Positions 10,397 to 64,000 are shown, counted from the first letter of the stretch. The stretch: 64,000 bases of DNA from a virus (IMGVR_UViG_3300026311_000001:1-64000), one strand, 5' to 3'. Notes: a model not told the origin generated them from the letters alone. Numbers and translations are program-made.

Positions 10397-10397
10397 T

Positions 10398-24156: not shown

Positions 24157-24223
24157 AAATTTTAATTTTTAAGCTCCCTAATCAACTCTTACGTTGTGCA
24201 TCACTACACAAGCCCCTTGATCT

Positions 24224-35931: not shown

Positions 35932-35940
35932 TATCTAAGA

Positions 35941-47046: not shown

Positions 47047-47069
47047 AGTGTTATTGATTAAAGTTGTTT

Positions 47070-50442: not shown

Positions 50443-51636
50443 TTATGCTCCATTTTGTGAACTACCCACCCACGCTAAAGCGATGGGATGGGCTTCATGG
50501 GTCAAAGCTCCTTCTAACGAAGGCAACGTACCATGATTTTTAAGTGTATGTTCCGTACACAATTTATTTAATGCGAAATTTTTAATATTAACGGAAGCGT
50601 TAAGATCACGATTAAAAACAGAACCACATTCAGGACAAACCCATTCACGGTCTTTGAGTGTAAGTTCTTTGTTAATGTATCCGCACGCTGAACATGTTTT
50701 AGAGCTTGGTTCAAATCTCCCAATCCTTAGAATGTTTACACCGTTCCATTTTGCTTTATATTCAAGCATAGCAACAAACATTCCCCATGATACGTCAGAA
50801 ATTGAACCTGCTAAACAGTGGTTCTTTAACATTCCAGAAATATTTAAGTCTTCCAAAGCAATAGATTGGTTCTCTCTTATTAACTCTGTACTGACCTTGT
50901 GCAAAAAGTCTTTTCTTTGGTTGGCTACTTTCTCATGTAGAATAGCTAACCGATGTTTACGCTTATTTGATTTGTGTCTTGAAAATTGTCGTTGCTGGTA
51001 TTTTAAGCGATCTATTGATTTACGTAAGTACTTTGGATTGTCGTATTCTTTGCCATTTGAGGCAACAAGAAAAGATTTAATTCCTAAATCCACCCCTACT
51101 GTTGTTTCTTCATTAACTGGTTTTGATTGTTTTTCTACCTCGCCAGTTTCGCAAAGAATAGATACAAAATATTTACCTGTTGGCGTTCTACTTATCGTAG
51201 CTTGTTTTATTTCTCCCTTTATCTGCCTATGTAATACAATATCAACACCCTTTTTAAACTTAGGAATAATAAGTTTGTCGTTATCAATTTTTATACTTTG
51301 TGGAATATTGAAAGACTGTTTTCCTCTACCCTTTTTCTTAAATTTAGGGAAATCAGTACGCCCCTTAAAGAAGTTTTCAAAAGCAGTGTTCATATTAACA
51401 ATAGATTGTTGCAAAGACTGGCTATTAACTTCTTTTAACCATTCATTTTCTTTTTTTAAATCAGGGAGTCGTTTAACAAGGCTATACCAAGAATGGTTGG
51501 TTTTGTCTTTAGCGTATTCTGATTGTTTAAAAGCCAAAGCATTGTTATACACAAAGCGAGCGCAACCAATATGTTTATTGATTAACTCAGCTTGTGGTGC
51601 TGTAGGATTCAAACGATATTTAAACGCTTTTAACAT
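50443..51636 (-). CDS. tnpB: TnpB (IS605 OrfB-type), paralogue of 44322..45500
   Basis: Long identical runs with the other copy (ATISRTPTGKYFVSILCETGEVEKQS; HKVSTELIRENQSIALEDLNI). D/E/D and the Zn finger are intact. Confidence 0.9.
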   Translation of the reverse strand: MLKAFKYRLNPTAPQAELINKHIGCARFVYNNALAFKQSEYAKDKTNHSWYSLVKRLPDLKKENEWLKEVNSQSLQQSIVNMNTAFENFFKGRTDFPKFKKKGRGKQSFNIPQSIKIDNDKLIIPKFKKGVDIVLHRQIKGEIKQATISRTPTGKYFVSILCETGEVEKQSKPVNEETTVGVDLGIKSFLVASNGKEYDNPKYLRKSIDRLKYQQRQFSRHKSNKRKHRLAILHEKVANQRKDFLHKVSTELIRENQSIALEDLNISGMLKNHCLAGSISDVSWGMFVAMLEYKAKWNGVNILRIGRFEPSSKTCSACGYINKELTLKDREWVCPECGSVFNRDLNASVNIKNFALNKLCTEHTLKNHGTLPSLEGALTHEAHPIALAWVGSSQNGA

Positions 51637-51734
51637 ATTGCAAATATACAATTTTTATATTAATTGTTATCTTTGTATAAGATTATTAACCATGCCTTAC
51701 ATCCAACCGACTGAAGATCGGTTGGTTTTACGGC
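50457..51734 (-). mobile_element. IS605-family tnpB-only element, paralogue of 44317-45622
   Basis: Right end at 50457-50496 (..GGGTGGGTAGTTCAC). Left-end hairpin at 51694-51734 (minus strand: GCCGTAAAACCAACCGATCTTCAGTCGGTTGGATGTAAGGC). Confidence 0.65.
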
Positions 51735-51881: not shown

Positions 51882-52349
51882 TTAATCTTTTGGTAGTCCT
51901 AATAATAACCTTATTGCTGTTTTTCTGTACAGACCTATATTGATTTGTTGTCTTTCTTCAAGGATTTCATCAACAATTCTATCTATTGGTTGTTTTGATT
52001 TTAACGAATCAAACTCATATACTAAAGGCTGAAGTATCTTATATGCTTTTAAACACAGATATTTTAAATACACGGATTCTTTATAATAAACCGAGCAATA
52101 ATTATCAACCTTTTTAATACCTATAAAAACAGAAGCATGACTACCGTAGTTGACACGATTAGCAATGATTTTTTTAGATAACCGGTTTTGAACATACTTA
52201 TAAAATATATTTATTGCGGTATATCTTGCTAATGCAATTGGGTTAGTTTCCCTGAGCTGTTGTTTTGAACAGAAATTATCATTCTGTGAATAAAAATGAA
52301 ATGTCAATTTCAGGATCTTGTCAAAGGCTAATAAAAATTTTTCTTCCAT
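51882..52349 (-). CDS. DnaA-domain-IV-like HTH protein
   Basis: PIALARYTAINIFYKYV...LSKKIIANRVNYGSHASVFIGIKKVDN resembles the Bac_DnaA_C pattern (IA.aRqiAMYL...S...IG..fg.rdHStV..a..ki). Confidence 0.45.
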   Translation of the reverse strand: MEEKFLLAFDKILKLTFHFYSQNDNFCSKQQLRETNPIALARYTAINIFYKYVQNRLSKKIIANRVNYGSHASVFIGIKKVDNYCSVYYKESVYLKYLCLKAYKILQPLVYEFDSLKSKQPIDRIVDEILEERQQINIGLYRKTAIRLLLGLPKD

Positions 52350-52386
52350 GATGTATTACTTTTTCTTCCATGATGTAATTTTACGA

Positions 52387-52911
52387 TCACTTACCAAGCG
52401 TAATTTTCACGTACGAATTTGAAGTTCTTACCGGTGGATTAATTTTCTCACCTGTAACCTTATCGTAAGTTTCCGTTTCCGCTTTTTCAATCGTTTTCAA
52501 AGCGTCCTCAGTCTTTTTAATCTGATCGAGTAGTTCTTTCCTCTTAGCGTAAAGATCATTCAGTACGCTTGAATTACACCCGGAGAAATCATATTTAACT
52601 CCGGTTTCTGCCCTTTCAACTTTTGCACCCTTATATGAAAATACTTTCTGTGGATCTTTTTCAACTTCCGTCATAATTCTGTCACGGACTAATTCATCAG
52701 CCCGGAGTATCTTAATGAGTTCTTCCATTGCCTTAAGTTGAATAGCAACATCAAGTGGGTTAATATACCCTGCATCGAGTTCGGCTCTGAACCGTTCAAC
52801 AAAAGTATTTATCTGACTTTTATTTGACGGTAATACTGTTAGTTGTGAACTTGCTTTTTCTGGTAATCCGCTAATTACTTGATTATCAGAATGGTAAGTC
52901 ATCTGCTCCAT
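52387..52911 (-). CDS. hypothetical protein
   Basis: Track ORF 52387..52995; an internal ATG (MEQMTYHS..) is chosen to limit overlap with the upstream gene. Confidence 0.45.
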   Translation of the reverse strand: MEQMTYHSDNQVISGLPEKASSQLTVLPSNKSQINTFVERFRAELDAGYINPLDVAIQLKAMEELIKILRADELVRDRIMTEVEKDPQKVFSYKGAKVERAETGVKYDFSGCNSSVLNDLYAKRKELLDQIKKTEDALKTIEKAETETYDKVTGEKINPPVRTSNSYVKITLGK

Positions 52912-53644
52912 CAGGTGTTGTTTTTGTGTTTTTCTTTTCTTCAAATCGCTGGTCAATATCCGAATACATTGTTTCAGTATCCGTTTTCGTATCATCGTAT
53001 TTTACATCCTGTACATCTTCAATGCTTGAATTTACAATTTCTTCTTCTTTCTGAGAGAAGTAATGTTTAAGGTATTCCTGAAGTTGCCGGTCAAGTTCTG
53101 TAGCCTGTTTAATGTCGATGTCCCTTAATTTTACTGCTTTAAACACAGGTCTTTTGAAAGAAACGGATCCACTACTATCTTCAACAGTTTCAAGTACCGA
53201 AACTCCAAATTTTTCTTTGTCTCCTTTGTAATCAAACCAAGGGGAACGGCTTGCACCGTGAAACTGGAAATTAACAAGTTCCATAGGTTTGTCTTTTACA
53301 ATAAGTCCTGCATAAACTGACTTTGAATAGTGTCCCTGTATTCTTTCAACTTCTCCTTTGATCTTTTCCCAGGTTCCTACTAACTTGATGTCGGTTTTAA
53401 AGACCCTTACTGAAAGAAGTTCTTCTTTGATGTTTCTTACTTCATTTGAAACAATACCGGCTTTATAGTTCTTGTTGTACCCTTTAACGGTATGCAATTC
53501 ATCAAGAACTACAAAGTAAATTGGTAAGGGCAGTGTGATGTTCTTTTCAGTTTCTTTATCATAATACTGAAATGTTCCCGATTCTCCTTTAAATTCTAAG
53601 AATTTAACTGTCGGATTTTTTACTCTTGGATTACTGAAGCTCAT
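52886..53644 (-). CDS. single-stranded DNA-binding protein (putative)
   Basis: Acidic C-terminal tip ..PDGADDLPF*, like the SSB/gp2.5 interaction tail (D-D-D-I-P-F type). Replication-module context. Confidence 0.5.
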   Translation of the reverse strand: MSFSNPRVKNPTVKFLEFKGESGTFQYYDKETEKNITLPLPIYFVVLDELHTVKGYNKNYKAGIVSNEVRNIKEELLSVRVFKTDIKLVGTWEKIKGEVERIQGHYSKSVYAGLIVKDKPMELVNFQFHGASRSPWFDYKGDKEKFGVSVLETVEDSSGSVSFKRPVFKAVKLRDIDIKQATELDRQLQEYLKHYFSQKEEEIVNSSIEDVQDVKYDDTKTDTETMYSDIDQRFEEKKNTKTTPDGADDLPF

Positions 53645-53687
53645 AATTTATTATTTGTTTAATTAAAGTTATTTGAATTTAATGATT

Positions 53688-53885
53688 TTATGCCATTTGT
53701 GCAAGCAATTGTACCATTTGCCCTAATTGAAATAACATTGAATCATAAGTATATGAAATAACGGCTTTGGCGAGCTTACTACTTTCATAAGGTTCAGTGC
53801 CTTTGTATTCAATATTTAGTTCATTGCAGGCTTTTTCCAGTATTTGTATCCTACTTTTTTCAATTAATATTGTTGTGGTTGTCAT
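53688..53885 (-). CDS. hypothetical small protein
   Basis: First ORF of the minus-strand operon, 23 nt after a TATCTTTG box. Confidence 0.4.
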   Translation of the reverse strand: MTTTTILIEKSRIQILEKACNELNIEYKGTEPYESSKLAKAVISYTYDSMLFQLGQMVQLLAQMA

Positions 53886-53907
53886 TATGTAAATTCTAAT
53901 TCAAGGT

Positions 53908-53915
53908 CAAAGATA
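53908..53915 (-). promoter_or_regulatory. -7 box TATCTTTG (leftward operon)
   Basis: Plus-strand CAAAGATA in the divergent intergenic region. Confidence 0.4.
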
Positions 53916-53977
53916 GTCATTTTTTTGATTGTGCAAAGAATTTTCCACATTTTTTATACAGTTATTGATTTATTGTG

Positions 53978-53985
53978 TATATTTG
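53978..53985 (+). promoter_or_regulatory. -7 box TATATTTG (rightward early operon)
   Basis: TGTGTATATTTGTAGG, 30 nt upstream of the ATG at 54015. Confidence 0.4.
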
Positions 53986-54014
53986 TAGGAAATATTAAAA
54001 TATGAAAACTATCA

Positions 54015-54212
54015 TTGAAGATTTTATTAAAAATGAATGACGAGCAAGAGCCTGAGTTACCGGAAGGGACAACAATAAGGTTTGAAATAGGTGATCTAAG
54101 AATAAGTTGTAAGGCTGATGAAGAAGGTCTTGTCGTCCGCAAAACAAGTGTTACCGGCGAAGATAGGATTATTATAGTCGGAATGAGTGGAAATGTAATC
54201 ATAGTAAAATAA
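54015..54212 (+). CDS. hypothetical small protein
   Basis: Track ORF of 65 aa. Confidence 0.35.
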   Translation: MKILLKMNDEQEPELPEGTTIRFEIGDLRISCKADEEGLVVRKTSVTGEDRIIIVGMSGNVIIVK

Positions 54213-54219
54213 CGATAAA

Positions 54220-54489
54220 ATGAACCGAATACAAGAAGTATTAATTGAGCAGGGCAGAACGCAGGTATGGCTGTCCAAACAGCTTAACCGTAGCGATGAA
54301 ACAATAAGCCGGTATTGCACAAATAAAATACAGCCGGATAATATTTATATGGAAAAAATAGCAAGCCTGCTGAACGTCCCTGTTGAAGTTCTCATAGTCA
54401 AACCATGCCCTGATTGTATGGGTAATATGATCTATAATGTGATAGAAAAACATTGGATATGTTTGAATTGTAAAAATGTAGTGGAATGA
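54220..54489 (+). CDS. XRE-family HTH regulator with C-terminal CxxC..CxxC zinc ribbon
   Basis: IQEVLIEQGRTQVWLSKQLNRSDETISRYCTNKIQP (HTH_3), then CPDCMG....WICLNCKN. Confidence 0.7.
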   Translation: MNRIQEVLIEQGRTQVWLSKQLNRSDETISRYCTNKIQPDNIYMEKIASLLNVPVEVLIVKPCPDCMGNMIYNVIEKHWICLNCKNVVE

Positions 54490-54947
54490 AAAAGACACTA
54501 GCAAAGTATTTGAAAAAAGAAATGGTAAGCATAGACCCATTTGCGAACAAATGCAAATTAGCAAAAATTACCAATGATTTAAACCCTGAATACGATACGG
54601 ATTACCATTTAGACGCTGTTGATTTTTTAAAGCAGTTTGAGGATAATTCAATTGATTTCGTTTTTTATGACCCACCATATTCATTAAGGCAGGTAAGCGA
54701 ATGCTATAAAAATGTTGGAATACCTGTTACAATGGAAACCACGCAAAGCAGTTGGAGAACAAAGCACATAAACGAAATTAGTCGAATACTAAAACCAAAC
54801 GGGATTGTAATGTGCTTTGGGTGGAATAGTTCGGGTGTGGGTAAAAAACGAGGCACTGAATTAATCGAAGTGTTATTGGTTGCTCACGGTGGTAGCCACA
54901 ATGATACAATTTGCACCGTAGAACGTAAGCCACCAAAGCTGTTTTAA
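54486..54947 (+). CDS. compact DNA (amino) methyltransferase, DPPY motif
   Basis: SIDFVFYDPPYSLRQ and ..RILKPNGIVMCFGWN. Confidence 0.65.
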   Translation: MKKTLAKYLKKEMVSIDPFANKCKLAKITNDLNPEYDTDYHLDAVDFLKQFEDNSIDFVFYDPPYSLRQVSECYKNVGIPVTMETTQSSWRTKHINEISRILKPNGIVMCFGWNSSGVGKKRGTELIEVLLVAHGGSHNDTICTVERKPPKLF

Positions 54948-55001
54948 CATTGCTGGTAATGTATCAAGTGTATATGACGTAAAAAAAGCTAACACCAAAC
55001 T

Positions 55002-55946
55002 ATGAACGAAGCACTAAAGGCATTTGAATTTAAAACCGAAGGGGAGGGAATTAATGTACTATCTCTTTTCGATGGGATGTCGTGTGGGCAAATTGCATTG
55101 CAGAAACTTGGTGTAAAAGTTAAAAACTATTTTGCCTCTGAGATTAAACCACACGCCATAAAAGTAACTCAACACAATTTCCCTGATACAATCCAGGTAG
55201 GTGATGTTACAAAACTACACGGTGAGTCATTTCCAAAAATAGACTTGCTAATAGGTGGCTCACCTTGTCAGGATTTTAGCAGGGGTAATGCAATACGTGA
55301 TGGATTGAATGGGATTAAATCAGGGCTTTTCTTTGAATACTTACGGCTAAAAGCTGAATTAAATCCTACCTATTGGCTACTTGAAAATGTAGTGATGAGT
55401 GATGCTGATTATTTCACCATTAGCAACTACATGAAAACCGAACCAGTAAGGATTAATTCGGCTTTGATTTCTGCTCAATTACGTGACCGCCTTTATTGGA
55501 CAAACGTAGGTCCGGAATACTTCGACTTATTTGGTAGCCGTAAGTGTGTAATACCACAACCAAAAGATAAAGGAATACTACTTAAACACATTTTAGAAAG
55601 TGGATATACTGATAGAGAAAAAAGCAGAGCATTACTTGAAAGTGATAGCCGACCATTACGGACACTTGAAAAAATGTGGCATAGATATTCTGATACAGGA
55701 TTTACAACTGTGGTATTTGAAAGCCCTGATTTAGATTGGCAAAAAGGATTGAGATACTTTACACAAACTGAATTAGAAAGACTACAAACTGTACCCGAAG
55801 GATACACCTCAATTTTGAAACGTAATGACGCAGCGTGTTTACTTGGTGATGGTTGGACTGTTGATGTTATTGCTCATATCTTGTCTTTCATGCGCGTGGG
55901 GGTTTTAAATTCAAATGCCTTACCCGAACTACAATATGAAACATGA
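55002..55946 (+). CDS. DNA (cytosine-5) methyltransferase
   Basis: VLSLFDGMSCG (motif I), GGSPCQDFS (IV, PC), LLENV (VI), TELERLQTVPEGYT (IX-like), LGDGWTVDVIAHI (X). Confidence 0.9.
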   Translation: MNEALKAFEFKTEGEGINVLSLFDGMSCGQIALQKLGVKVKNYFASEIKPHAIKVTQHNFPDTIQVGDVTKLHGESFPKIDLLIGGSPCQDFSRGNAIRDGLNGIKSGLFFEYLRLKAELNPTYWLLENVVMSDADYFTISNYMKTEPVRINSALISAQLRDRLYWTNVGPEYFDLFGSRKCVIPQPKDKGILLKHILESGYTDREKSRALLESDSRPLRTLEKMWHRYSDTGFTTVVFESPDLDWQKGLRYFTQTELERLQTVPEGYTSILKRNDAACLLGDGWTVDVIAHILSFMRVGVLNSNALPELQYET

Positions 55947-56110
55947 ACTCAATAGCTTTTTTTATGGCATATACACGTTGTTATGTGCTGTAAACCGTGA
56001 GCGTATGGCAAGCCCAACATGTGCGGTGGGAATGGATTTGAAGCATTGCATATACGGCTGGTATATGCTGTGCGGCCTCCGGCAGGGGTTGGGCTTATTG
56101 AGGAGGTTTA

Positions 56111-56249
56111 TTGCACATAACGTTGAGTGTAACCGCATGTAGCGGATTAGAAAGTAATAACCTATCAAATTATACGAATATGAATAAAGAGCAGAACACT
56201 TCGCAAACCACAGAACCCGCTATTGCGGTTGACACTGTGTTAGGCAACG
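56111..56249 (+). repeat. cassette junction element J1
   Basis: TTGCACATAAC (pairs with GTTATGTGC at 55980), arms AGTGTAACCGCATGTAGCGG / CCGCTATTGCGGTTGACACT, ATG 56180 in the loop, then GTTAGGCAACG. Confidence 0.65.
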
Positions 56250-56437
56250 TACTTTATTTACCTGAATTGGTAATGAGTTGGAAATCTTTAAATGTAGATA
56301 ATTTTGGTGTTAAACTACCAATTACAACATATCCAGGGATGGGTAAATATTGGATACCTGTATTTGAAAGCATTGAAGAATGCAAAAAAGAATATCCTGA
56401 CAGTAAGGTGATAATTATAAAACAAGGGCAATGGTAG
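56180..56437 (+). CDS. hypothetical cassette protein
   Basis: ATG in the J1 loop (MNKEQNTSQTTEPAIAVDTVLGNV...), in frame through the GTTA-box. Confidence 0.5.
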   Translation: MNKEQNTSQTTEPAIAVDTVLGNVLYLPELVMSWKSLNVDNFGVKLPITTYPGMGKYWIPVFESIEECKKEYPDSKVIIIKQGQW

Positions 56438-56440
56438 TAT

Positions 56441-56499
56441 GTTGCCTAACGGTTAGTATAAACGGTCGTTTTAATGCCGTTTATACATTGTTGTGTGTC
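56441..56499 (+). repeat. cassette junction element J2 (minimal, 59 bp)
   Basis: GTTGCCTAAC-GGTTAGTATAAACGGTC-gttttaat-GCCGTTTATACATT-GTTGTGTGTC. Confidence 0.7.
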
Positions 56500-56604
56500 T
56501 GTGGGCGGTGATTTAGTACTAAACTTTATTTGAAATACTGAACAAAAAAGAAAAAAGGGAGGGGGAAAACTTTATAGAGTACCCATTTATATAAATCTGA
56601 TACA

Positions 56605-56913
56605 ATGAAAGTATTAACAGAAGGTCACAAGTACCAATTAAGCGGTTTTGAGAACGCTGAAAACACTCAAGAAATCCAATTCATTGAGAAAACGCCAATT
56701 GAAGGCACAACCGAATTGAAAACGGTAAATGATGGAACAACTAACGAGGAACTTCTTGAAGTCTTAATTGACCGAATGAACTACTTACAAGGAAAATTCC
56801 CTTGCCGTGAAAATGCAATTGTAATTACTAAACTTCAAGAATCTTTGATGTGGTTAGAAAAAAGAACGTCTGACCGTAAAAAGAGAAATGTAGAAGGTAA
56901 ACAATTGGCTTAA
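56605..56913 (+). CDS. hypothetical cassette protein
   Basis: Track ORF of 102 aa. Confidence 0.55.
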   Translation: MKVLTEGHKYQLSGFENAENTQEIQFIEKTPIEGTTELKTVNDGTTNEELLEVLIDRMNYLQGKFPCRENAIVITKLQESLMWLEKRTSDRKKRNVEGKQLA

Positions 56914-56986
56914 ATTTTTGTGAGCGTGGGCTTTTTCTTTTTTGATTATTAGCAGAAATGTTGATTTGAAAAACGGATTTAGCCCA

Positions 56987-57291
56987 TTGCACACAACAAG
57001 GCTGGCGGTATGGGTATGTTTGCCCAACGCACCGCACCGGACTTGAATTGAAATACTTAACTTAAAAATACGAGCGATGGCATATTATTCATTGAATACA
57101 CAAATAAACAAAGGGAAATACAAAGGGAAAAAAGTAGAGGAACTTATTAAAAGTACCGAAGGGCAAAAATATCTTCTTGCCTTACATATTGGAAACTATA
57201 ATGTGTTTTTAAACCCAGAAGTATTCAGAGCGTTGGCAGATTACACTCGAACAAAGAACGGCAAATTACCTATACCGCATGTTAGCGATAC
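56987..57291 (+). repeat. cassette junction element J3 (long coding loop)
   Basis: TTGCACACAAC, arm GCGGTATGGGTA ... arm TACCTATACCGC, then GTTAGCGATAC. The loop contains the first ~68 codons of ORF 57077. Confidence 0.55.
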
Positions 57292-57388
57292 GGTTTGCGA
57301 TAATCCGCATTGCGTAGACGGTGTAGTAGCTGAAATATATGGCGAAAAAGTTTACTGCGATAAATGTCAATCGCAAACTGGACGCTAA
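57077..57388 (+). CDS. hypothetical Cys-rich protein spanning a junction
   Basis: 103 aa. ..GKLPIPHVSDTVCDNPHCVDG...CDKCQ. The stop TAA lies inside the TAAC-box GACGCTAAC. Confidence 0.5.
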   Translation: MAYYSLNTQINKGKYKGKKVEELIKSTEGQKYLLALHIGNYNVFLNPEVFRALADYTRTKNGKLPIPHVSDTVCDNPHCVDGVVAEIYGEKVYCDKCQSQTGR

Positions 57389-57510
57389 CGTTTGACGGTA
57401 TCAGCAGTATTTGCTTCACTAAATTTAATTTTAAACACAAATGACAAAATTAGCAGAAAATAATCCACAAGGCACGGCAAATATTGCTGATGACTGTGTG
57501 TTAGCCACCG
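57381..57510 (+). repeat. cassette junction element J4
   Basis: GACGCTAAC, arms ATCAGCAGTATTTGC / GCAAATATTGCTGAT, ATG 57441 in the loop, then GTTAGCCACCG. Confidence 0.65.
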
Positions 57511-57767
57511 TACTTTTATGTGATTGCGGGTCGGCGGAGCATCAAATAATAATACATAAAGACAAAGATTTTTCAGAAGGATATAGAGAAGTGATACTTT
57601 GTCCACACTTAATCACATACCGTAATATTTTCAAACGGGTATTGGTTGCTTTTAAATACATATTTGGTTATAAATGCAAATATGGTGCGTGGGATAGTAT
57701 CATAGTTTCGAAACAAAATTATCTACCATTAAAAGAAGCTGTGGAGTTTCTTGAGTATGGTGGCTAA
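57441..57767 (+). CDS. hypothetical cassette protein
   Basis: 108 aa. Stop inside GGTGGCTAAC. Confidence 0.5.
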   Translation: MTKLAENNPQGTANIADDCVLATVLLCDCGSAEHQIIIHKDKDFSEGYREVILCPHLITYRNIFKRVLVAFKYIFGYKCKYGAWDSIIVSKQNYLPLKEAVEFLEYGG

Positions 57768-57894
57768 CGGACGAGCGTATGAGTAGTGGCGGATAGAATG
57801 CAACTACCTTTCGTAAAGCACAAAGATTGAAAAGAGAACTAAACTTAAATATTAACACAAAAACCGCCATTACTTATACGCATTGTTAGCGGTA
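57759..57894 (+). repeat. cassette junction element J5
   Basis: GGTGGCTAAC, arms GCGTATGAGTAGTGGCGG / CCGCCATTACTTATACGC, then GTTAGCGGTA. Confidence 0.7.
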
Positions 57895-57921
57895 TGTATG
57901 GGCGGATTAGAAGTACAAAAG

Positions 57922-58476
57922 ATGAAAAAATACGAAATAATTTACGCAGATCCAGCTTGGCAATATAAGACCAAAGAAAGCCTTGCAAAAACAAGTATTT
58001 TGAATGGGGAGCTTAACACCCATTATGGAACGATGACTATTGCTGAGTTGGGTGGGTTGCCGTTGGGGAGCATTTCAGATAAAAACTCTATGCTGTTTAT
58101 GTGGGTGGTTAGCCCGATGCTTGATGATGGAATTGAACTTATGAAAAAATGGGGCTTTAAATATAGCACAATAGCTTTTATTTGGCACAAACAAAGGGCT
58201 AACCCTGGACATTATACTATGAGCGAATGTGAAATATGTTTAGTTGGAAGGCGGGGTAAAATACCAACTCCAAGAGGGGCAAGAAATGTTCGTCAGTTTT
58301 TATCTGAAATGCGTGGAAAACACTCTGCTAAACCAACTGAAATAAGAAATAGAATTGAACTTATGTTTCCAACACAAACAAAATTAGAAATGTTTGCAAG
58401 GCAGAGTGCGAAGGGTTGGGATGCGTGGGGAAACGAGGTTGAAAATAGCATTGACCTTAGCCCATATTACCGCTAA
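57922..58476 (+). CDS. MT-A70-family DNA N6-adenine methyltransferase
   Basis: IIYADPAWQY (DPPW-type motif IV), MLFMWV, KWGFKY, HSAKP. Confidence 0.9.
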   Translation: MKKYEIIYADPAWQYKTKESLAKTSILNGELNTHYGTMTIAELGGLPLGSISDKNSMLFMWVVSPMLDDGIELMKKWGFKYSTIAFIWHKQRANPGHYTMSECEICLVGRRGKIPTPRGARNVRQFLSEMRGKHSAKPTEIRNRIELMFPTQTKLEMFARQSAKGWDAWGNEVENSIDLSPYYR

Positions 58477-58569
58477 CGGCTTGTGGTATGAAATCGAAAC
58501 CGACACCACCACAGCCTGAACAATGCGACTAAGCAACCAGAGGTTTTGTTTTATACCACTTGTTAGCCA
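58468..58569 (+). repeat. cassette junction element J6
   Basis: TACCGCTAAC (pairs with GTTAGCGGTA at 57885), arms GTGGTATGAAATCGAAACC / GGTTTTGTTTTATACCAC, then GTTAGCCA. Confidence 0.7.
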
Positions 58570-58611
58570 TCTGGTGCGGTCAATTAGTAATAAACTTAAT
58601 TTGAAAACGAA

Positions 58612-59019
58612 ATGGAAGCAAAAAATTTTAGAATTGGAAATTTACTTACAAGCAAAGGATGGGGAAATGTTGGGGCAATTGAAGGGATTGAAATTACACA
58701 AGATGGTTTTGAATTGAAAGTAAAAGGGTATGTGCATCCTTGGGAAAAAGACAAATATTTTGATTTAGCCCCAATTGAATTAGATGAAGAATGGCTTACA
58801 AAATTTGGATTTATTGAAGAAACTCCAAACGAGTTTATACTACGGAAACATCCGATAATTTTTAACATTCATAGAAATTTAGTCACTGGTGAGTTTATGT
58901 CCAGAATGAACCCGAATTATTCAATATTAGTTAAATCTGTTCATCAATTGCAGAATTTATTTTTTGCGCTTACAAAAGATGAACTTGAATTGAAAACGGA
59001 ATGTAGCACTTGTGGCTAA
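58612..59019 (+). CDS. hypothetical cassette protein
   Basis: 135 aa. Stop inside TGTGGCTAAC. Confidence 0.55.
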   Translation: MEAKNFRIGNLLTSKGWGNVGAIEGIEITQDGFELKVKGYVHPWEKDKYFDLAPIELDEEWLTKFGFIEETPNEFILRKHPIIFNIHRNLVTGEFMSRMNPNYSILVKSVHQLQNLFFALTKDELELKTECSTCG

Positions 59020-59112
59020 CGGTCGGGTATTGGCGATGCCCGCACTTAGAAACTTTAAATTATAAACAAGCTGTCCAGCGGGTATTGCCAATACCTTGTT
59101 AGCAGCAGTAAC
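59010..59112 (+). repeat. cassette junction element J7
   Basis: TTGTGGCTAAC, arms GGGTATTGGCGATGCCCGC / GCGGGTATTGCCAATACC, then GTTAGCAGCAGTAAC. Confidence 0.7.
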
Positions 59113-59124
59113 GGATTAAAAAAA

Positions 59125-59313
59125 ATGGAACAGTCAAAACAAGAAAAAGAAATTTATGAGTTAGCAGAACTTTTGATGCAGTCTGAAAACTTAGAAGCAA
59201 GTGCAACTATCCTTCGTGATTTTGCTGAAAAGTGTTATCAAGAAGGGGCGGTTGATGCTCAAAAAGATGCAGCGGAAGAAATACGTGAACACTATGTCGA
59301 AGGTGGTCGGTAG
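59125..59313 (+). CDS. hypothetical acidic small protein
   Basis: Track ORF of 62 aa. Confidence 0.5.
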   Translation: MEQSKQEKEIYELAELLMQSENLEASATILRDFAEKCYQEGAVDAQKDAAEEIREHYVEGGR

Positions 59314-59457
59314 TTATTGCTGCTAACGGTTGATTATATGAAACGGTGGGGATTTAAAGCCTTACATTTTCGCATCGTAATAAACTAACAACAAGGCAGG
59401 TGGGCTAAAAAGACGTATGACACCCCACTGTTTTATATAATGTGTTGTGCGCAGTAC
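59313..59457 (+). repeat. cassette junction element J8
   Basis: GTTATTGCTGCTAAC (14 of 15 complementary to 59098-59112), arms ATTATATGAAACGGTGGGG / CCCCACTGTTTTATATAAT, then GTTGTGCGCAGTAC. Confidence 0.7.
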
Positions 59458-59461
59458 GGTT

Positions 59462-59662
59462 ATGAAATTTGCAGTAACAGTTTTTAATACTGAAAGAGTT
59501 TCTTACGAAGAAATAAAAGACGTAGGACACACGAAAATTTTTAATGACACTGATAGTTTGAAAGATATAATTGAATGGGGAAACTCTATTCGTGCAAAAA
59601 CCTATGATGGGCCAAAAACAGTTGATATAACAGAATTAAGATTCAGCAAGTTGTGTGAGTAG
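59462..59662 (+). CDS. hypothetical cassette protein
   Basis: Likely ATG at 59462 (MKFAVTVFNTE...). Confidence 0.5.
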   Translation: MKFAVTVFNTERVSYEEIKDVGHTKIFNDTDSLKDIIEWGNSIRAKTYDGPKTVDITELRFSKLCE

Positions 59663-59763
59663 TATTGCGCACAACGGATGGGTATATGAAAAGTAGCCCA
59701 ACCGCAAACTTTGAACAACGCACGAACCTTTCATGGGCTATTTTTTATATACCGTGTTAGCTG
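59662..59763 (+). repeat. cassette junction element J9
   Basis: GTATTGCGCACAAC, arms GGTATATGAAAAGTAGCCCA / TGGGCTATTTTTTATATACC, then GTTAGCTG. Confidence 0.7.
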
Positions 59764-59795
59764 TCTGGTGCGGATTTTAAAAACAAAACTTTAAT

Positions 59796-60629
59796 ATGAA
59801 AAACGAACGTAGTAATAATATTTTTTTGAGCGGTGGCAAAAATGGTTTTGAAAAAAACAAAAACATCCTTTGGTATGGTGAATGCCTTCAGATGATGAAG
59901 CAAATACCTGACCAGAGTATAAACCTAATCTGCTGTGATTTACCCTATGGTGTGACTAAAAATAAATGGGATTCATTAATTGACTTGGATTTGCTTTGGG
60001 AGCAATACGAAAGAGTAATAGTTGAAAATGGTGCAATAGTTCTTTTTGGACAAGATAAATTTTCTGCAAGGTTGATGCTTTCAAATGAGAAGCTACATAG
60101 ATATAACTTGATATGGCAGAAAACCACACCAACAGGACATTTGAACGCTAAAAGAATGCCCTTAAGAAGCCACGAAGATATATTGGTGTTTTACAAGAAA
60201 TTACCAACATATAACCCACAAAAAACGACTGGACACAAAAGGAAGGTAAGCACAGCAAAGCATAAGCGAAACTCAAAAAAGACAACCAATTACGGTGAAC
60301 ACGGATTGACAACTTATGATAGTACCGAACGCTACCCGAAAAGTGTTTTGACCTTTGCAACTGATAAACAGAAATCAGCATTACATCCAACACAAAAACC
60401 GCTGGAGTTGATTAAATATCTTGTAAAAACATATTCAAATGAAAATGATTGGGTACTTGATAATACTTGCGGAAGTAACACAACTGGACTTGCTTGCTTT
60501 GAATTAAACCGAAACTATATTGGAATTGAGAATGATTTTGATATGTACGAAATTTCAAAAGAGCGGGTGGGAGAAAAAAATATTATTACGGCTGATATGC
60601 ACGAACCTTCAATTAAAACTGGAACGTAG
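59796..60629 (+). CDS. DNA methyltransferase, N6/N4 (PF01555-like, beta-class order)
   Basis: LICCDLPYGV (motif IV variant), ...HPTQKPLELIKYLVKTYS....VLDNTCGSNTTG (motif I). Confidence 0.85.
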   Translation: MKNERSNNIFLSGGKNGFEKNKNILWYGECLQMMKQIPDQSINLICCDLPYGVTKNKWDSLIDLDLLWEQYERVIVENGAIVLFGQDKFSARLMLSNEKLHRYNLIWQKTTPTGHLNAKRMPLRSHEDILVFYKKLPTYNPQKTTGHKRKVSTAKHKRNSKKTTNYGEHGLTTYDSTERYPKSVLTFATDKQKSALHPTQKPLELIKYLVKTYSNENDWVLDNTCGSNTTGLACFELNRNYIGIENDFDMYEISKERVGEKNIITADMHEPSIKTGT

Positions 60630-60632
60630 CAC

Positions 60633-60773
60633 TTGCAGCTAACGGATTACGGCTATGAAGCGTTGCCGAGTAAAACGCCCTAACTTTCAAATTAAAAATA
60701 AAATGAATAAAGAGAACAAAACTTCGGATAAGCACGAACACGGCAATGATTTTATAGCCGATGTTATGCAACG
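60633..60773 (+). repeat. cassette junction element J10
   Basis: TTGCAGCTAAC (pairs with GTTAGCTG at 59756), arms CGGCTATGAAGCGTTGCCG / CGGCAATGATTTTATAGCCG, ATG 60703 in the loop, then GTTATGCAACG. Confidence 0.65.
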
Positions 60774-60921
60774 TTTTTTAATTTATGCTGATGACTACAT
60801 CACTTGGAACAAACAAAAAAATGACTGGAATCATTCTGATGAATTTACAGGCACTTACTTAGACGCTCACGAATATGCCCGTTCAAAATATGGTAAGCGT
60901 TATACTTTAAATGTTGCATAA
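60703..60921 (+). CDS. hypothetical cassette protein
   Basis: MNKENKTSDKHEHGNDFIADVMQRF... Stop inside GTTGCATAAC. Confidence 0.5.
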   Translation: MNKENKTSDKHEHGNDFIADVMQRFLIYADDYITWNKQKNDWNHSDEFTGTYLDAHEYARSKYGKRYTLNVA

Positions 60922-61049
60922 CGTGTTGCAAATAAATATAGTACGATTATGAAAGAAAAAATTATCGAAATAGTAGGATTTAACATGGAACCCGAAAGGG
61001 CTGAACTTATTGCGCAGCGAGTATTGGATTTATTTGCTGTTATGCGACG
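60913..61049 (+). repeat. cassette junction element J11
   Basis: GTTGCATAAC (10 of 10 with GTTATGCAAC at 60763), arms GCAAATAAATATAGTAC / GTATTGGATTTATTTGC, ATG 60949 in the loop, then GTTATGCGACG. Confidence 0.65.
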
Positions 61050-61254
61050 TTTTAATTTTAGAATTGTAAAAGACGTGAATAGAGATAAAAAACACCCAGG
61101 ATGGGAAATGATTAATTACGGATTAGAAATTGATAATGAAATAGTATGTTGGTTTGCTTATGAACATCCACAAATGACATTAGAAGAAATTAAGTTGCAA
61201 CAAAATAAAAGAGAATTATATGAAGAAATTGTGCGCAGGGTAAATGGCGCATAA
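60949..61254 (+). CDS. hypothetical cassette protein
   Basis: 101 aa. Stop inside GGCGCATAAC. Confidence 0.5.
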   Translation: MKEKIIEIVGFNMEPERAELIAQRVLDLFAVMRRFNFRIVKDVNRDKKHPGWEMINYGLEIDNEIVCWFAYEHPQMTLEEIKLQQNKRELYEEIVRRVNGA

Positions 61255-61349
61255 CGGTTGAGGCTAAGAAACGTAGCCTTGTAATCACGTTTCAAAATAG
61301 GCAGGAACTTGTCAGGCTATGTTTTTTAGCCTTTGTTACCGCCAGTTAA
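61246..61349 (+). repeat. cassette junction element J12
   Basis: GGCGCATAAC, arms GGCTAAGAAACGTAGCCT / AGGCTATGTTTTTTAGCC, then GTTACCGCCAGTTAA. Confidence 0.7.
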
Positions 61350-61360
61350 TTTTAAAAGTC

Positions 61361-61618
61361 ATGAGTAATTATTTGGAATTTCAAGAAATTAAATCAGATT
61401 ATTTTAATGCTGATGGTGAATTTTACGGAGGATTCACAGGATGCTCGCCTGTAAAAAATATTATGGAAAAAATGAACAAAACTATTGAGGAAATGGCAGA
61501 ACATTCAAAACGCCTTGTTGCTCAAATTGAATCTTTTGACTTTATAAACAAAGAACCATTAAATTTAAAAGATAGTGAACATTTTATTAACTTAAAAAAA
61601 TATATAGATTATGTGTAA
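61361..61618 (+). CDS. hypothetical cassette protein
   Basis: Likely ATG at 61361 (MSNYLEFQEIK...). Confidence 0.5.
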   Translation: MSNYLEFQEIKSDYFNADGEFYGGFTGCSPVKNIMEKMNKTIEEMAEHSKRLVAQIESFDFINKEPLNLKDSEHFINLKKYIDYV

Positions 61619-61817
61619 ATATAAAAAATCAAACCCGCAACCTAAAAACATTCCATATCCAAGAGTTCAATTTGAATCTGAGTGTGGATTTAAACTTATG
61701 TTAACAGAAGGATATGACCAAGATTGGCATAACCACAAAAAATACGGACAGCCATTATTGCCAAAAGGTAAATGCTTAAAGTGTCAGTCTGAAATTGAAG
61801 TAGTGCCGTCTTTTTAA
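61611..61817 (+). CDS. hypothetical small protein (CxxC)
   Basis: 68 aa. Overlaps the previous ORF by 8 nt, so there are two ORFs in one cassette. Confidence 0.45.
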   Translation: MCKYKKSNPQPKNIPYPRVQFESECGFKLMLTEGYDQDWHNHKKYGQPLLPKGKCLKCQSEIEVVPSF

Positions 61818-61959
61818 TTGGCGGTAACGGTGGGTGTAGCTGCCAGTGGCGGCAAGTAACCGAAAAGCATAATTAGAATTATAAACTTTAAAATACTTAC
61901 AAAATGTCAAACGAAGAACAACACCAGCCATTGCAGCTACACGATGTTAGCCGCTGCCC
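61814..61959 (+). repeat. cassette junction element J13
   Basis: TTAATTGGCGGTAAC (14 of 15 with 61335-61349), arms GTGTAGCTGCCAGTGGC / GCCATTGCAGCTACAC, ATG 61904 in the loop, then GTTAGCCGCTGCCC. Confidence 0.7.
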
Positions 61960-62275
61960 TTCTGATGTTGAAATGATTGAATCATTAAATAAGAAGGTTG
62001 AAGAAAAACAACGAAAACTTAATGACCTGGAAAACAAATTCAGGGAATGCCGGGAAGAGTACAGGCAACTTATATCTTTTCAAATCGCTCAATTAAGAGC
62101 AGTACAGATGCTTTACGATGTGATGAAAAACGGAAATACTCACTATCAAAAGGCTTTATTTGCTGAAATAGCTAAGGAATCGCTTGGCCGAGAAATAGGT
62201 TCACTTATTGAACGCTATCAAAACACTAAATGGAAATTTCGATTAGGTGACGAACCTGACGAACTACCGTTTTAG
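61904..62275 (+). CDS. coiled-coil protein with SSB-like acidic C-terminal tip
   Basis: Ends ..LGDEPDELPF*; compare the phage SSB candidate, which ends ..GADDLPF*. Confidence 0.5.
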   Translation: MSNEEQHQPLQLHDVSRCPSDVEMIESLNKKVEEKQRKLNDLENKFRECREEYRQLISFQIAQLRAVQMLYDVMKNGNTHYQKALFAEIAKESLGREIGSLIERYQNTKWKFRLGDEPDELPF

Positions 62276-62277
62276 GG

Positions 62278-62416
62278 TTGCGGCTAACGTTGGGTATATG
62301 ACCAGTAGCGGATTAAATAGTAATAACTTATCAAATTAGTAGAATGAATATAGAAAGCACAGAACTTCAAAACAGCACCGCCCCCGCTATTGGTTATATA
62401 CCGGGTTATGCACAGG
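62278..62416 (+). repeat. cassette junction element J14
   Basis: TTGCGGCTAAC, arms GGGTATATGACCAGTAGCGG / CCGCTATTGGTTATATACC, ATG 62344 in the loop, then GTTATGCACAGG. Confidence 0.7.
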
Positions 62417-63423
62417 TTTTTTCTCATCGTTTTCCTTATCGTTGGACTTTGAAAGATGCCAACTTTACAAAGGATAAGGGCAAAGTATTTAGTTGCTTTG
62501 CTTGTGGTGGTGGTTCAACAATGGGTTACAAATTAGCGGGGTTTGATGTGATAGGATGCAATGAGATTGACCCTAAAATGATGGAAGCATACCGAACTAA
62601 CCACAACCCCAAATACAGCTATTTAGAACCGATACAAACCTTTAAACTTAGAAAGGATTTACCAAAGGAATTATACAACCTTGATATTTTGGACGGTTCA
62701 CCACCTTGTAGCAGTTTTTCAATGGCTGGAAATAGAGAAAAAGACTGGGGTAAAGATAAGGTTTTTAGAGAAGGTCAAGCGATGCAAGTTTTAGATACTT
62801 TGTTTTTTGATTTTATTGATTTGGCGAAGAAATTACAGCCGAAAGTTGTGGTTGCTGAAAATGTGAAAGGGTTGCTTTTAGGCGAAGCGAAGAAATATGT
62901 AAGACAAATATACCGTGAGTTTGACCAAGCAGGATATTACTGCCAACATTGGCTTTTAGATGCTTCAAAAATGGGTGTACCTCAAAGACGTGAGCGAGTG
63001 TTTTTTATTTGTTTACGTAAAGATTTAGCTGAACCTTTTTTGTATCAGCAAGATTTGTTTACGGTTAATCCTAAATTGGAATTGAATTTTAATGAGCCGG
63101 AAATACCTATAAAGCAATTTGCAAAAGGTATTGCAAAAAAAGAAAGTCAAAATTATTCAGAAGATAGATTTGGCGATGTAATGTTAGACTTGAATAGAGC
63201 AAGCAACACAATAGCGACAGACATAAATAGATATTGGCTTGATGAAAATACGTTGATTGATAAAAACACAGTTAGCTTAATAGGTAGTTATCCTATTGAT
63301 TACAACCACTTGGAATTTAACAACCCTCAGTATTTAATCGGAATGAGCGTTCCGCCTGTAATGACAGCAAACATAGCGACTGAAATTTATTCGCAATGGC
63401 TCTCAAAATTGGCACGGTCTTAA
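62344..63423 (+). CDS. DNA (cytosine-5) methyltransferase
   Basis: FSCFACGGGSTMGY (I), DGSPPCSSFS (IV), VVAENVKGLL (VI), VPQRRERVFF (VIII), IGMSVPPVM (X). About 45 aa of N-terminal leader is encoded in the junction. Confidence 0.9.
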   Translation: MNIESTELQNSTAPAIGYIPGYAQVFSHRFPYRWTLKDANFTKDKGKVFSCFACGGGSTMGYKLAGFDVIGCNEIDPKMMEAYRTNHNPKYSYLEPIQTFKLRKDLPKELYNLDILDGSPPCSSFSMAGNREKDWGKDKVFREGQAMQVLDTLFFDFIDLAKKLQPKVVVAENVKGLLLGEAKKYVRQIYREFDQAGYYCQHWLLDASKMGVPQRRERVFFICLRKDLAEPFLYQQDLFTVNPKLELNFNEPEIPIKQFAKGIAKKESQNYSEDRFGDVMLDLNRASNTIATDINRYWLDENTLIDKNTVSLIGSYPIDYNHLEFNNPQYLIGMSVPPVMTANIATEIYSQWLSKLARS

Positions 63424-63424
63424 A

Positions 63425-63561
63425 CTTGTGCATAACGGCTGCGGGTATGACCAGTGGCGGATTACGAGTACAAAACTTTCAAAATACGATACAGAATGAA
63501 CGAAGCAAATAACTTTCAAATAGCAGAAAACCCGCCATTGGTTATACCCGATGTTAGCAAC
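63425..63561 (+). repeat. cassette junction element J15
   Basis: CTTGTGCATAAC (11 of 12 with 62405-62416), arms CGGGTATGACCAGTGGCGG / CCGCCATTGGTTATACCCG, ATG 63496 in the loop, then GTTAGCAAC. Confidence 0.7.
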
Positions 63562-64000
63562 TGCCCTTTTTCTATTGTCTTTAACGAGGATTGTGTGCAG
63601 GGTTTAAAACGCTTTGCAGATAATTACTTTGATTTGGCAATAGTTGACCCGCCTTATGGAATTGGAGCAGATAAAGCCCAAAATAACGCTGCTATGCAAA
63701 GAATAAAAGCAGAAGGTAAAAGCAAAGCTGGGAGAGGTTGGAAATTATACGCTGATACTGATTGGGATAATGAAATACCAACCTTTGAATATTGGGAGCA
63801 GTTGTTTAGGGTATCTAAAAATCAAATTGTGTGGGGTGGCAATTACTTTACGGAATATCTGCCCCCATCAATGGGTTGGGTAATGTGGGATAAAGGGCAA
63901 AGAGATTTTAGCCTTGCCGATGGGGAACTTGCATGGACAAGTTTTAACAAAGCCTTACGAATATTTGAAATGAGTAGAGGAAAGGCACTTGCTAAAAATA
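63496..64000 (+). CDS. DNA N6-adenine methyltransferase (partial, runs off window)
   Basis: FDLAIVDPPYGIGADK (motif IV) after a junction-encoded leader MNEANNFQIAENPPLVIPDVSNC. Confidence 0.8.
   Translation, partial: MNEANNFQIAENPPLVIPDVSNCPFSIVFNEDCVQGLKRFADNYFDLAIVDPPYGIGADKAQNNAAMQRIKAEGKSKAGRGWKLYADTDWDNEIPTFEYWEQLFRVSKNQIVWGGNYFTEYLPPSMGWVMWDKGQRDFSLADGELAWTSFNKALRIFEMSRGKALAKN

Follow-up and report, generated by a model that had tools for sequence, protein, structure and literature searches.

Clusters of integron attC sites that lack an integrase are known as CALINs. In attC sites only the triplets AAC and GTT are conserved, and on the bottom strand, which is the one recombined, the base following AAC is usually G; the exchange point lies in the AAC box of this strand and the strand choice is set by extrahelical bases (Bouvier, 2009; PMC2727003). 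Integrons are very rare in Bacteroidetes (PMC9024848). CALINs have been reported from virulent phages, among them the cultured Polaribacter phage P12002L, in which HattCI predicted attC sites, one of them at a junction (Qi et al., 2023; PMC9892861). T4-type phages carry promoter-stem-loops (PeSLs), which combine a sigma-70 promoter with a terminator stem-loop (Arbiol et al., 2010; PMC2839356). Here we describe two arrays of small genes in a 64,000-nt stretch of viral DNA (IMGVR_UViG_3300026311_000001:1-64000, called the window below), in which the cargo of each unit is bracketed by a covarying helix (B) and preceded by a local junction hairpin (A). As judged from the sequence, the phage unit and the bottom strand of an integron cassette are isomorphic, the open reading frame (ORF) of the phage unit lying on that same strand. 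A literature search turned up the PeSL papers and the phage CALIN paper, in which this architecture is not described; in the literature that could be searched, the attC call for two sites of one phage is the only earlier record of the feature.

The window is a portion of the genome of a tailed Bacteroidota phage with a G+C content of 36%, and encodes a large terminase and a portal protein. No close relatives were found among sequenced phages, and only the methyltransferase genes match Flavobacterium phages. Positions 1–10437 are 100% identical to a section of an 83,393-bp contig (ERZ773285 NODE_480), and positions 52344–64000 to a section of a 64,095-bp contig from a different sample. The right array lies in an early-looking operon that starts near 53,980, where the motif TATATTTG is likely the promoter, judging by its fit to the host consensus. 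A reading of the sequence alone (the sequence-only reading) had counted fifteen units from 55980 onward. These units are confirmed, but the array begins earlier, at the TAAC closing ORF 54486–54947, and a sixteenth unit runs beyond the end of the window, with its 3′ box GTTGCTAAC visible in sequence L001. All fifteen GTTA/TAAC box pairs were present where that reading had placed them.

The length of a B helix was counted as contiguous pairs inward from GTT/AAC with G·T allowed. As GTT and AAC were the search anchors, finding them is no independent result. By this count the fifteen cognate pairs form, in order, helices of 9, 15, 9, 7, 16, 10, 9, 15, 14, 9, 14, 8, 15, 9, and 15 bp, with a mean of 11.6 bp as compared with 5.0 bp for non-cognate pairs. 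At helix positions 7–12, outside the shared 6-nt core, cognate pairs had 61 Watson-Crick matches out of 90 against 31.5 ± 4.2 for permuted pairs, and none of 100,000 permuted pairings reached 61. When all boxes were compared with all others, the cognate pair was both row and column maximum in 12 of 15 cases; the 5′ box of unit 11 (61039) pairs over 14 bp with the 3′ box of the preceding unit and over 8 bp with its own. The complementarity indeed spans the two ends of one gene, as had been proposed, and not one junction, the two boxes of which match at only 1.6 of 6 positions.

The variable complementarity had been put at 3–8 nt. It is real and unit-specific, but this length is too short, as nine helices of the window, of which seven belong to the right array and two to the left, reach 14–15 bp by way of one G·T pair at position 11. 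On the opposite strand these long helices end at 10 bp. The long form consists of GTT, seven variable pairs, the G·T at position 11 with the G on the 5′ strand, three to six more pairs and the AAC end. Positions 4–10 vary freely with full compensation, and the fourth box base is itself variable (GTTA, GTTG, GTTT, GTTC). The short box form is bipartite, with 8 bp followed by an internal loop (TCT opposite TG) and then GGTGC paired with GCACT, which again opens with a G·T.

The design is conserved well beyond the window. In 0.9 Mb of related loci, fetched via a distant cargo homologue, 34 of the 50 helices of at least 13 bp had as their sole wobble the G·T at position 11 with the G 5′, while a shuffled-sequence control gave 0 of 31. 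AAC is followed by G in 28 of the 34, and wobbles at other positions make up ∼1% of B pairs. We also scanned genome and viral contigs with the pattern TAACGG-N2-7-GGTATATGA, which returned mostly chance matches that were then filtered by the G·T-at-11 signature. Other contigs added 43 raw signature matches, and 82 distinct helices were left after removal of duplicates and two doubtful loci. One locus (L117) was dropped as a chance match with its ORFs on the other strand, and a loose chain-based detector was given up for its excess of false positives. The feature is real, widespread and highly ordered.

We also looked for pairing beyond the B helix. Cognate ORF ends gave −21.7 kcal/mol and non-cognate ends −19.3 kcal/mol (sd 5.3); this gain is slight, so nested perfect inverted repeats are not a general feature. 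Three such repeats are nevertheless seen within methyltransferase genes: 21 nt at 55017–55037/55901–55921 (unit 0), 18 nt at 58070–58087/58295–58312 (unit 5), and 16 nt at 59812–59827/60574–60589 (unit 9). Two of the three pairs lie near both ends of the ORF, and their lengths are far beyond chance; the other cargos lack them.

The local arms that the sequence-only reading saw between a TAAC box and the next GTTA box are also borne out. They form continuous hairpins of 19–20 bp (z-scores between −3 and −7.7 for the + strand), and the sense-strand junction stems were predicted at 19–21 bp. The typical A hairpin has ∼19 bp and two G·T pairs five positions apart, with the G always in arm 1, and is set off by spacers of 4–6 nt on the 5′ side, beginning with G, and of 1–3 nt on the 3′ side. 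Read on the other strand, each wobble is an A·C mismatch, and the hairpins there are 0.5–10 kcal/mol weaker. The inner helix ranges from 12 to 25 bp and the loop from 4 to 237 nt, with loop lengths quantised at 71–72 nt (10 of 30 hairpins) and 33–36 nt (5 of 30). All 30 detected A helices are continuous, with two G·T wobbles and without extrahelical bases, in a detection that demanded contiguous pairing and would miss bulged helices. A hand alignment of the unit 1 junction helix (56126–56236) shows apparently one bulged base per arm. The reading frame through the arms and the 5′ box differs from unit to unit, which points to selection on the nucleic acid.

Many of the junction loops contain a start codon, as had been claimed, but the expression signals that had been placed there do not include a host-type promoter: neither TTG-N17-21-TAnnTTTG nor TAnnTTTG occurs in the junction loops. 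The loops do carry one to three copies, ∼37 nt apart, of the motif AACTTTC-N5-8-GCAC, which lies ∼20 nt upstream of many ATGs, is kept at the nucleotide level across differing reading frames, and could be a phage-specific promoter. With loops of 33–72 nt and no U tract after them, the A hairpins are not terminators. Rfam searches of the junctions, at gathering and at permissive thresholds, gave chance microRNA-like hairpins only.

Near-identical units (99–100%) were found in permuted order or in new contexts in other assemblies, and their break points lie at the unit borders. About 20 fall at TAAC|G; in two cases AA is followed by T where C would be expected, a hint of AA|C. The crossover had been predicted at G|TTA of the coding strand, and this did not hold, as related contigs break at TAAC|G, or possibly AA|C. 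Since near-identical copies break there, the unit runs from the spacer through hairpin, 5′ box and cargo to the 3′ box; the hairpin is moved along with the gene that follows it and not, as had been assumed, with the gene upstream of it. The unit at 574–164 on the minus strand (86 aa) is 100% identical in L006–L008 from the preceding TAAC to its own AAC, with unrelated flanks. In L336, unit 57390–57768 is directly followed by unit 56122–56450, which lies upstream of it in the window, both at 99.7% identity and with the crossover inside the shared TAACG. L334, L341, L351, L006–L008 and L216/L301 together with the S repeat (Table 1) all break at most ∼5 nt from AAC. When the first 30 nt of the unit at 57390 (unit 4) were scanned in metagenome contigs, ten contigs gave ten upstream sequences, each ending in TAAC; in all, this unit was seen in 11 different upstream contexts, every one with the same end. 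Such recurring units bear out the proposal of discrete exchangeable cassettes with attC-like geometry, in which the boxes flanking the cargo are cassette-specific.

In comparisons of more diverged copies, breaks are also seen at the GTTA core or immediately behind the 5′ box, so that the junction hairpin is a module of its own. One hairpin that supplies an ATG and a 20-codon leader precedes at least six different cargos, each fused to it in frame, and identical box pairs recur around different cargo; the junction type and boxes of unit 8, for example, recur at 574–164 on the minus strand around another ORF. L220 has a C5 methyltransferase fused to the front part (5′ box, start region, first 15 codons) of the N6 methyltransferase unit of the window.

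Several observations on the related loci may be added. In L220 an IS607-like gene (7757–8380, minus-strand orientation) at the end of the related array truncates a unit; by eye the insert has a MerR-type N-terminus and a serine recombinase, followed by another ORF start. In L006 (600–1880) a very tight type of junction, TAACCATG(C)C, with stop and start nearly overlapping, links the genes that precede the array, and two styles of gene junction are found within one operon. L345 (Ga0307375_10000028, 202,814 bp), which may be a jumbo phage or a bacterial chromosome, has the same junction hairpin as the window at 57390.

Judging from family scans, the cargo is accessory and anti-defence-related. 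It includes five or six DNA methyltransferases (two C5, one MT-A70 and two or three N6) and one weak Acb2/Tad1-like match (ORF 56605–56913 of unit 2); the remaining cargo consists of small ORFs without matches. About half of the ORFs have their start codon in the hairpin loop and continue across arm 2 and the 5′ box, and the others start just past the 5′ box. In five cases the start codon lies near the middle of a 71-nt loop; this loop length is retained in 12 of 20 long loops that have no read-through start codon. The distance from the stop codon to the AAC end is 1 nt in six units (the TAA of TAAC) and 11–14 nt in seven, with one exception.

The 82 helices come from unrelated viral contigs, from P12002L, where the minus strand shows the full architecture, and from two contigs of bacterial bins (metagenome-assembled genomes, MAGs). 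The cargo lies on the folding strand for 75 of them. L177 and L132, the bacterial-bin contigs, have these A and B structures around cargo that is encoded on the opposite strand, as is canonical for integrons. In L177, which lies in a clearly chromosomal section of a Zunongwangia contig of 104 kb, the bracketed gene is endonuclease III-like. L132, assigned to a Melioribacteraceae bin, brackets a DUF3795 protein and an AraC/GyrI/Cass2 protein; it may be a mis-binned phage, as it is only 5.2 kb long and has PhoH and RadC genes. Close homologues of its AraC/Cass2 cargo stand in ordinary chromosomal contexts with neither the elements nor an integrase nearby.

We compared the arrays with integrons feature by feature. 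Shared with integrons are the arrays of small accessory genes, the structure-defined sites with strand-specific folding, and the conservation of only AAC and GTT, with G after AAC. Both systems have two helices with an unpaired spacer and a variable loop, cassette-specific complementary boxes that flank the cargo, a border that falls on a conserved box triplet (AAC on the folding strand), and a stop codon that often lies inside the box. In other respects the phage arrays differ. No IntI gene was found beside them among the scanned ORFs, and the polarity is inverted, with the ORFs on the folding strand; an ORF on the top strand with the attC 3′ of it is seen only in L132 and L177. The outer helix is 14–17 bp long with an invariant G·T at position 11, as compared with 7 bp in attC. 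Most inner helices have two G·T wobbles in place of extrahelical strand-choice bases, which are absent from the 30 continuous A helices and seemingly present as bulges in one junction. The loops, quantised at ∼35 or ∼71 nt, carry start codons, leaders and a repeated motif, and the hairpin is also exchanged alone. The feature is integron-like in its logic but lacks several traits by which integrons are defined.

The two P12002L sites connect the arrays to experiment. P12002L_attC1 corresponds to the mini junction hairpin of unit 2, with a loop nearly identical to 56451–56489 (homologous region 56441–56497). P12002L_attC2 is the reverse complement of the region after the last 3′ box of that array, and has the R′ box GTTAGGC, to which the terminal 3′ box is reverse-complementary. 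IntI1 recombined P12002L_attC2 (PMC9892861).

A recombinase was sought with Pfam or PHROGs in ∼50 ORFs of the window and L005, a scan that left out ∼9.5 kb of the 83-kb genome and small ORFs. Within this scope no tyrosine integrase was found, in line with the sequence-only reading; of the HUH and tyrosine recombinases whose search it had proposed, only the former is represented, by a solitary Y1_Tnp gene (9308–9694, minus strand). The host-type promoter motif at 53978 has no integrase beside it, and no IntI lies within an 8-kb slice of the L177 contig. We also clustered all ORFs of 35 array-bearing loci in search of a common recombinase. Apart from cargo, the only proteins to recur are an HNH endonuclease (in 4 loci) and NinG (in 3).

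We tentatively favor a cassette system that acts at the DNA level, with attC-like sites defined by structure and a catalyst other than IntI. When the coding strand becomes single-stranded, the A hairpin and the cargo-bracketing B helix would fold and bring together the AAC and GTT cores conserved at the base of each helix, and units would be cut out, inserted or swapped at these cores, chiefly at TAAC|G. Such exchange would follow the logic by which integrons recombine attC with attC on the bottom strand, except that the genes lie on the folding strand and IntI takes no part. Candidate catalysts are a phage or host enzyme that has escaped recognition and template switching, promoted by the hairpins, at the microhomology TAACG (5 nt). 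Replication genes near 48–50 kb suggest an origin between the arrays, and in that case the coding strand would be the lagging-strand template in both. The strand choice would then not separate a DNA role from an RNA role.

The anatomy, the strand specificity, the covarying design kept across the family and the break points are established by the sequences; that the fold acts in DNA, and the manner of strand exchange, we infer from several features. IntI1 recombined P12002L_attC2, the conserved bases match those of attC, the break points are precise and recurrent, extra wobbles are scarce (∼1%), the loop length is retained even without a start codon, and in L177 and L132 the cargo is antisense to the folding strand, so that the helices are not tied to a sense mRNA. 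A number of points weigh against this reading. No tyrosine or serine recombinase was found in the scanned ORFs, none is annotated in the complete P12002L genome, and the 35 array-bearing loci share no protein family except cargo. No circular or excised form was seen. The context is Bacteroidetes, where integrons are very rare (PMC9024848), and P12002L_attC1 was the sole failure among six phage sites in the IntI1 assay (PMC9892861). The break points could also arise without a site-specific enzyme, by microhomology at the two cores: unrelated units have no sequence in common but TAACG and TGTTAG, and the breaks of older exchanges lie at both cores as well as just past the 5′ box. Other traits look designed for expression, namely the 75 clear phage cargos that all lie on the folding strand, the start codons in loops with leaders in frame, and the stops at fixed offsets of 1 or 11–14 nt from the AAC end. 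As the loops hold no host-type promoter, a polycistronic RNA could fold likewise.

The main alternative, to which we give somewhat less weight, is that the helices serve RNA; the mRNA panhandle that the sequence-only reading had offered as a second interpretation may also apply. On this account the array is transcribed as one long early mRNA, A and B make each cistron a folding domain, and exchange is a microhomology by-product at the helix bases. The fold would hold a start region without a Shine-Dalgarno sequence open in the loop and sequester the stop, and the stems may serve processing or stabilising. An RNA role would explain why the structures fold on the coding strand only, in both oppositely oriented arrays, with 75 of 82 cargos on the folding strand and every conserved non-Watson-Crick pair G·U-compatible. 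It would also fit the start codons in mid-loop in five 71-nt loops, the leaders in frame with at least six cargos, the stops at two fixed offsets inside the 3′ strand, and a promoter motif upstream of the operon with no host-type one in the junction loops. A predicted twister ribozyme between two cistrons of the other early operon suggests that intercistronic RNA cleavage occurs in this phage. Helices of this kind have precedents in the stems of 16S and 23S rRNA, where a gene is looped out by a stem of its flanks, and in the RNase III sites of T7, ∼20 bp helices between early cistrons; those lack conserved AAC/GTT cores and cassette exchange, whereas the phage helices have antisense-cargo copies in bacterial bins. 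Such antisense cargo speaks against a function in mRNA, as does the retention of the 71-nt loop in 12 of 20 long loops without a read-through start codon, and extra wobbles at ∼1% of pairs are, by our own estimate, few for RNA stems. Rfam families match no junction, and the conserved AAC, GTT and following G, the same as in attC, would be left unexplained. The two roles may occur together, and the same helices probably also shape the polycistronic mRNA.

That the junctions are true attC sites of a CALIN, mobilised by an IntI-type integrase supplied by the host, seems improbable to us. The HattCI call, the recombination of the terminal box site by IntI1, the AAC/GTT triplets with G after AAC, the spacer between the helices, a topology equal to the integron bottom strand, and the canonically oriented Cass2-family cargo of L132 all speak for it. 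However, IntI was not found in the scanned ORFs of the window, in the P12002L annotation or in the 8-kb slice of L177; integrons are very rare in Bacteroidetes and P12002L_attC1 failed with IntI1; most A helices lack extrahelical bases, and the phage ORFs lie on the folding strand, the reverse of canonical cassettes. We give still less weight to PeSL-like promoter-terminator motifs that act as homology patches between early genes, as in T4-type phages. PeSLs too are conserved intergenic modules in plastic, non-essential early regions where recombination shuffles genes (PMC2839356), and the accessory early genes of the arrays, a junction module that recurs with many neighbours, and a repeated loop motif that is possibly a phage-specific promoter would agree with this. 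Yet the hairpins, with 33–72 nt loops and no U tract, are not terminators, no host-type promoter motif lies in the loops, and the covariation statistics speak against a purely linear motif. PeSLs lack the defining feature of the phage arrays, a cargo-bracketing covarying helix, and its strand-specific wobble design; the sequence-only reading was right that the covariation across genes could not be attributed to them. Least probable, to a degree that we would hardly entertain it, is that the units are IS200/IS605-type single-strand elements moved by the Y1 transposase (9308–9694) and inserted 3′ of TAAC. The window does hold a Y1_Tnp gene and four TnpB-like genes, and the units resemble such elements in that one folded DNA strand would be acted on, with a hairpin near the left end and a border after a fixed tetranucleotide. 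TnpA hairpins are conserved in sequence, whereas the cassette arm sequences vary; the TnpB elements of this genome have quite different hairpins at their ends (CCCATC...GGGTGGGTAGTTCAC), and a link of the cassettes to the Y1 transposase or the TnpB elements was rejected, as the ends of the insertion sequences (IS) are unlike the cassette arms. P12002L has the same arrays and no such transposase annotated.

On the DNA-level reading, it is conceivable, though we hold this with more reserve, that a separate cassette-exchange system exists in Bacteroidota phages and in some of their hosts. Its single-stranded hairpin sites would function much as attC sites do, but without an integron integrase and with another signature, in which an outer helix of 10+1+4 bp has an invariant G·T and the inner helix has two G·T pairs. 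The system would be run by a new enzyme or by hairpin-guided template switching, and exchange two modules, a 5′ hairpin that provides start codon and leader and an anti-defence cargo. The arrays may thus be an undescribed way for phages to shuffle anti-defence genes, and they make a route for the turnover of counter-defence genes, which must be quick, readable in sequence. If structure drives exchange without an integron integrase, structure-specific recombination would reach a new phylum, lytic phages and perhaps a new enzyme, and such sites, being independent of sequence, could be of use as engineering tools. If the role is in RNA, the arrays would show how genes without a Shine-Dalgarno sequence can be insulated for plug-and-play expression. 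The signature GTT-N7-G...T-N7-AAC can serve as a search key for accessory-gene islands in uncultured phages, which in this phage are methyltransferase-rich. P12002L, being cultured and carrying the same arrays, is a ready experimental system.

The coordinates of the arrays and units are collected in Table 1.

Table 1. Positions of the cassette arrays, their units and associated sequences in the window. Arms are those of the junction hairpin; a single position on each side of the slash marks the outer end of a B helix strand.
Feature	Position	Strand	Details
Right cassette array	54941–64000	+	16 units; overruns the window end by ∼250 nt (L001)
Left cassette array	1990–164	−	5 units of the same architecture, divergent
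Left-array B helices	1900/1663, 1389/1269, 1150/907, 787/570, 454/164	−	
−7 motif TATATTTG	53978–53985	+	Fits Bacteroidota TAnnTTTG
Sequence S	26–163	−	Start codon of a 43-aa ORF; adjoins the last left-array AAC
Unit 0	54948–56121	+	Arms 54968–54991 / 55953–55976 enclose C5-methyltransferase ORF 55002–55946; B helix 55980–55988 / 56113–56121, 120 nt enclosed, without convincing ORF
Unit 1	56122–56450	+	ORF 56180–56437, start within junction loop; B helix GTTAGGCAACGTACT (56239) / AGTATGTTGCCTAAC (56450), 15 bp, G·T at position 11
Unit 2	56451–56997	+	Mini junction hairpin 56451–56489 (39 nt), homologue of P12002L_attC1; B helix 56490/56997; ORF 56605–56913
Unit 3	56998–57389	+	Junction 283 nt, loop contains first 65 codons of ORF 57077–57388; B helix 57281/57389
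Unit 4	57390–57768	+	ORF 57441–57767; junction holds ATG (57441) and 20-codon leader; B helix GTTAGCCACCGTACT / AGTATGGTGGCTAAC
Unit 5	57769–58477	+	Arms 57775–57792 / 57864–57881, loop 71 nt; B helix 57885/58477; MT-A70 methyltransferase ORF
Unit 6	58478–59020	+	ORF 58612–59019 (135 aa); bipartite B helix GTTAGCCA-TCT-GGTGC / GCACT-TG-TGGCTAAC
Unit 7	59021–59327	+	Arms 59026–59043 / 59078–59095; B helix 59098/59327, 15 bp; ORF 59125–59313
Unit 8	59328–59675	+	Arms 59333–59351 / 59423–59441, loop 71 nt; B helix GTTGTGCGCAGTAC / GTATTGCGCACAAC; ORF 59462–59662
Unit 9	59676–60643	+	Arms 59681–59700 / 59734–59753, loop 33 nt; B helix 59756/60643; N6_N4 methyltransferase ORF 59796–60629
Unit 10	60644–60922	+	B helix GTTATGCAACGTTT / AAATGTTGCATAAC; ORF end 60921
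Unit 11	60923–61255	+	ORF 60949–61254
Unit 12	61256–61828	+	Arms 61261–61279 / 61314–61332; B helix 61335/61828, 15 bp; two ORFs, 61361–61618 and 61611–61817
Unit 13	61829–62288	+	B helix 61946/62288; ORF 61904–62275
Unit 14	62289–63436	+	Arms 62293–62311 / 62384–62402; B helix 62405/63436, 15 bp; C5 methyltransferase ORF 62344–63423
Unit 15	63437–64000	+	Cut by window end; arms 63442–63463 / 63529–63550, loop 71 nt with ATG at loop position 36; 5′ box 63553; N6 methyltransferase ORF from 63497

Sequence S is also found after the last AAC of the right array (L001 11907–12047), identical and in inverted orientation. It forms an inverted repeat of at least 141 bp with 100% identity (window 26–166) that flanks the ∼19 kb between the arrays. 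This segment holds NinG and a 2182-aa LPD38 protein and might be invertible; the 64-kb MEGAHIT contig ends exactly within S.

Several further features were seen in the rest of the genome. The twister ribozyme is of type P3 (5550–5620, minus strand; 48.1 bits against a gathering threshold of 39.9) and lies between ORFs of the minus-strand early operon, right after the stop of ORF 5617–6027. HEARO RNAs were detected on the minus strand at 24012–24243 (117 bits), immediately upstream of the TnpB/IsrB-like ORF 22850–23974, and at 45720–45970 (104 bits), ∼200 nt upstream of the TnpB-like ORF 44322–45515; two further TnpB-like ORFs lie at 47075–48229 and 50443–51651. The HEARO RNAs and the four TnpB-like ORFs indicate that the genome is heavily colonised by IS200/IS605-type elements. 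The solitary IS200-like Y1 gene adjoins an HNH endonuclease gene (8671–9156, plus strand), and a 79-nt stretch at 10283–10361 is 89% identical, in inverted orientation, to 48289–48367 beside a TnpB-like gene. Tandem 27-nt repeats of ∼94% identity occupy 46225–46697 inside ORF 45952–47082, which encodes a DUF7666 protein. No tRNAs were found. The block at 35374–43672 encodes two GDP-mannose dehydratase/epimerase-like proteins, a DegT-type aminotransferase and glycosyltransferases; such sugar-modification genes are an unusual phage cargo and might act in the modification of DNA or of surface glycans. On the minus strand, a 70-nt direct repeat (6209–6278 / 6922–6991, 98.6% identity) lies upstream of two genes in the head region of the early operon, and a 27-nt repeat (6025–6051 / 6897–6923) precedes two start codons. 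These two repeats may be phage promoters or start regions.

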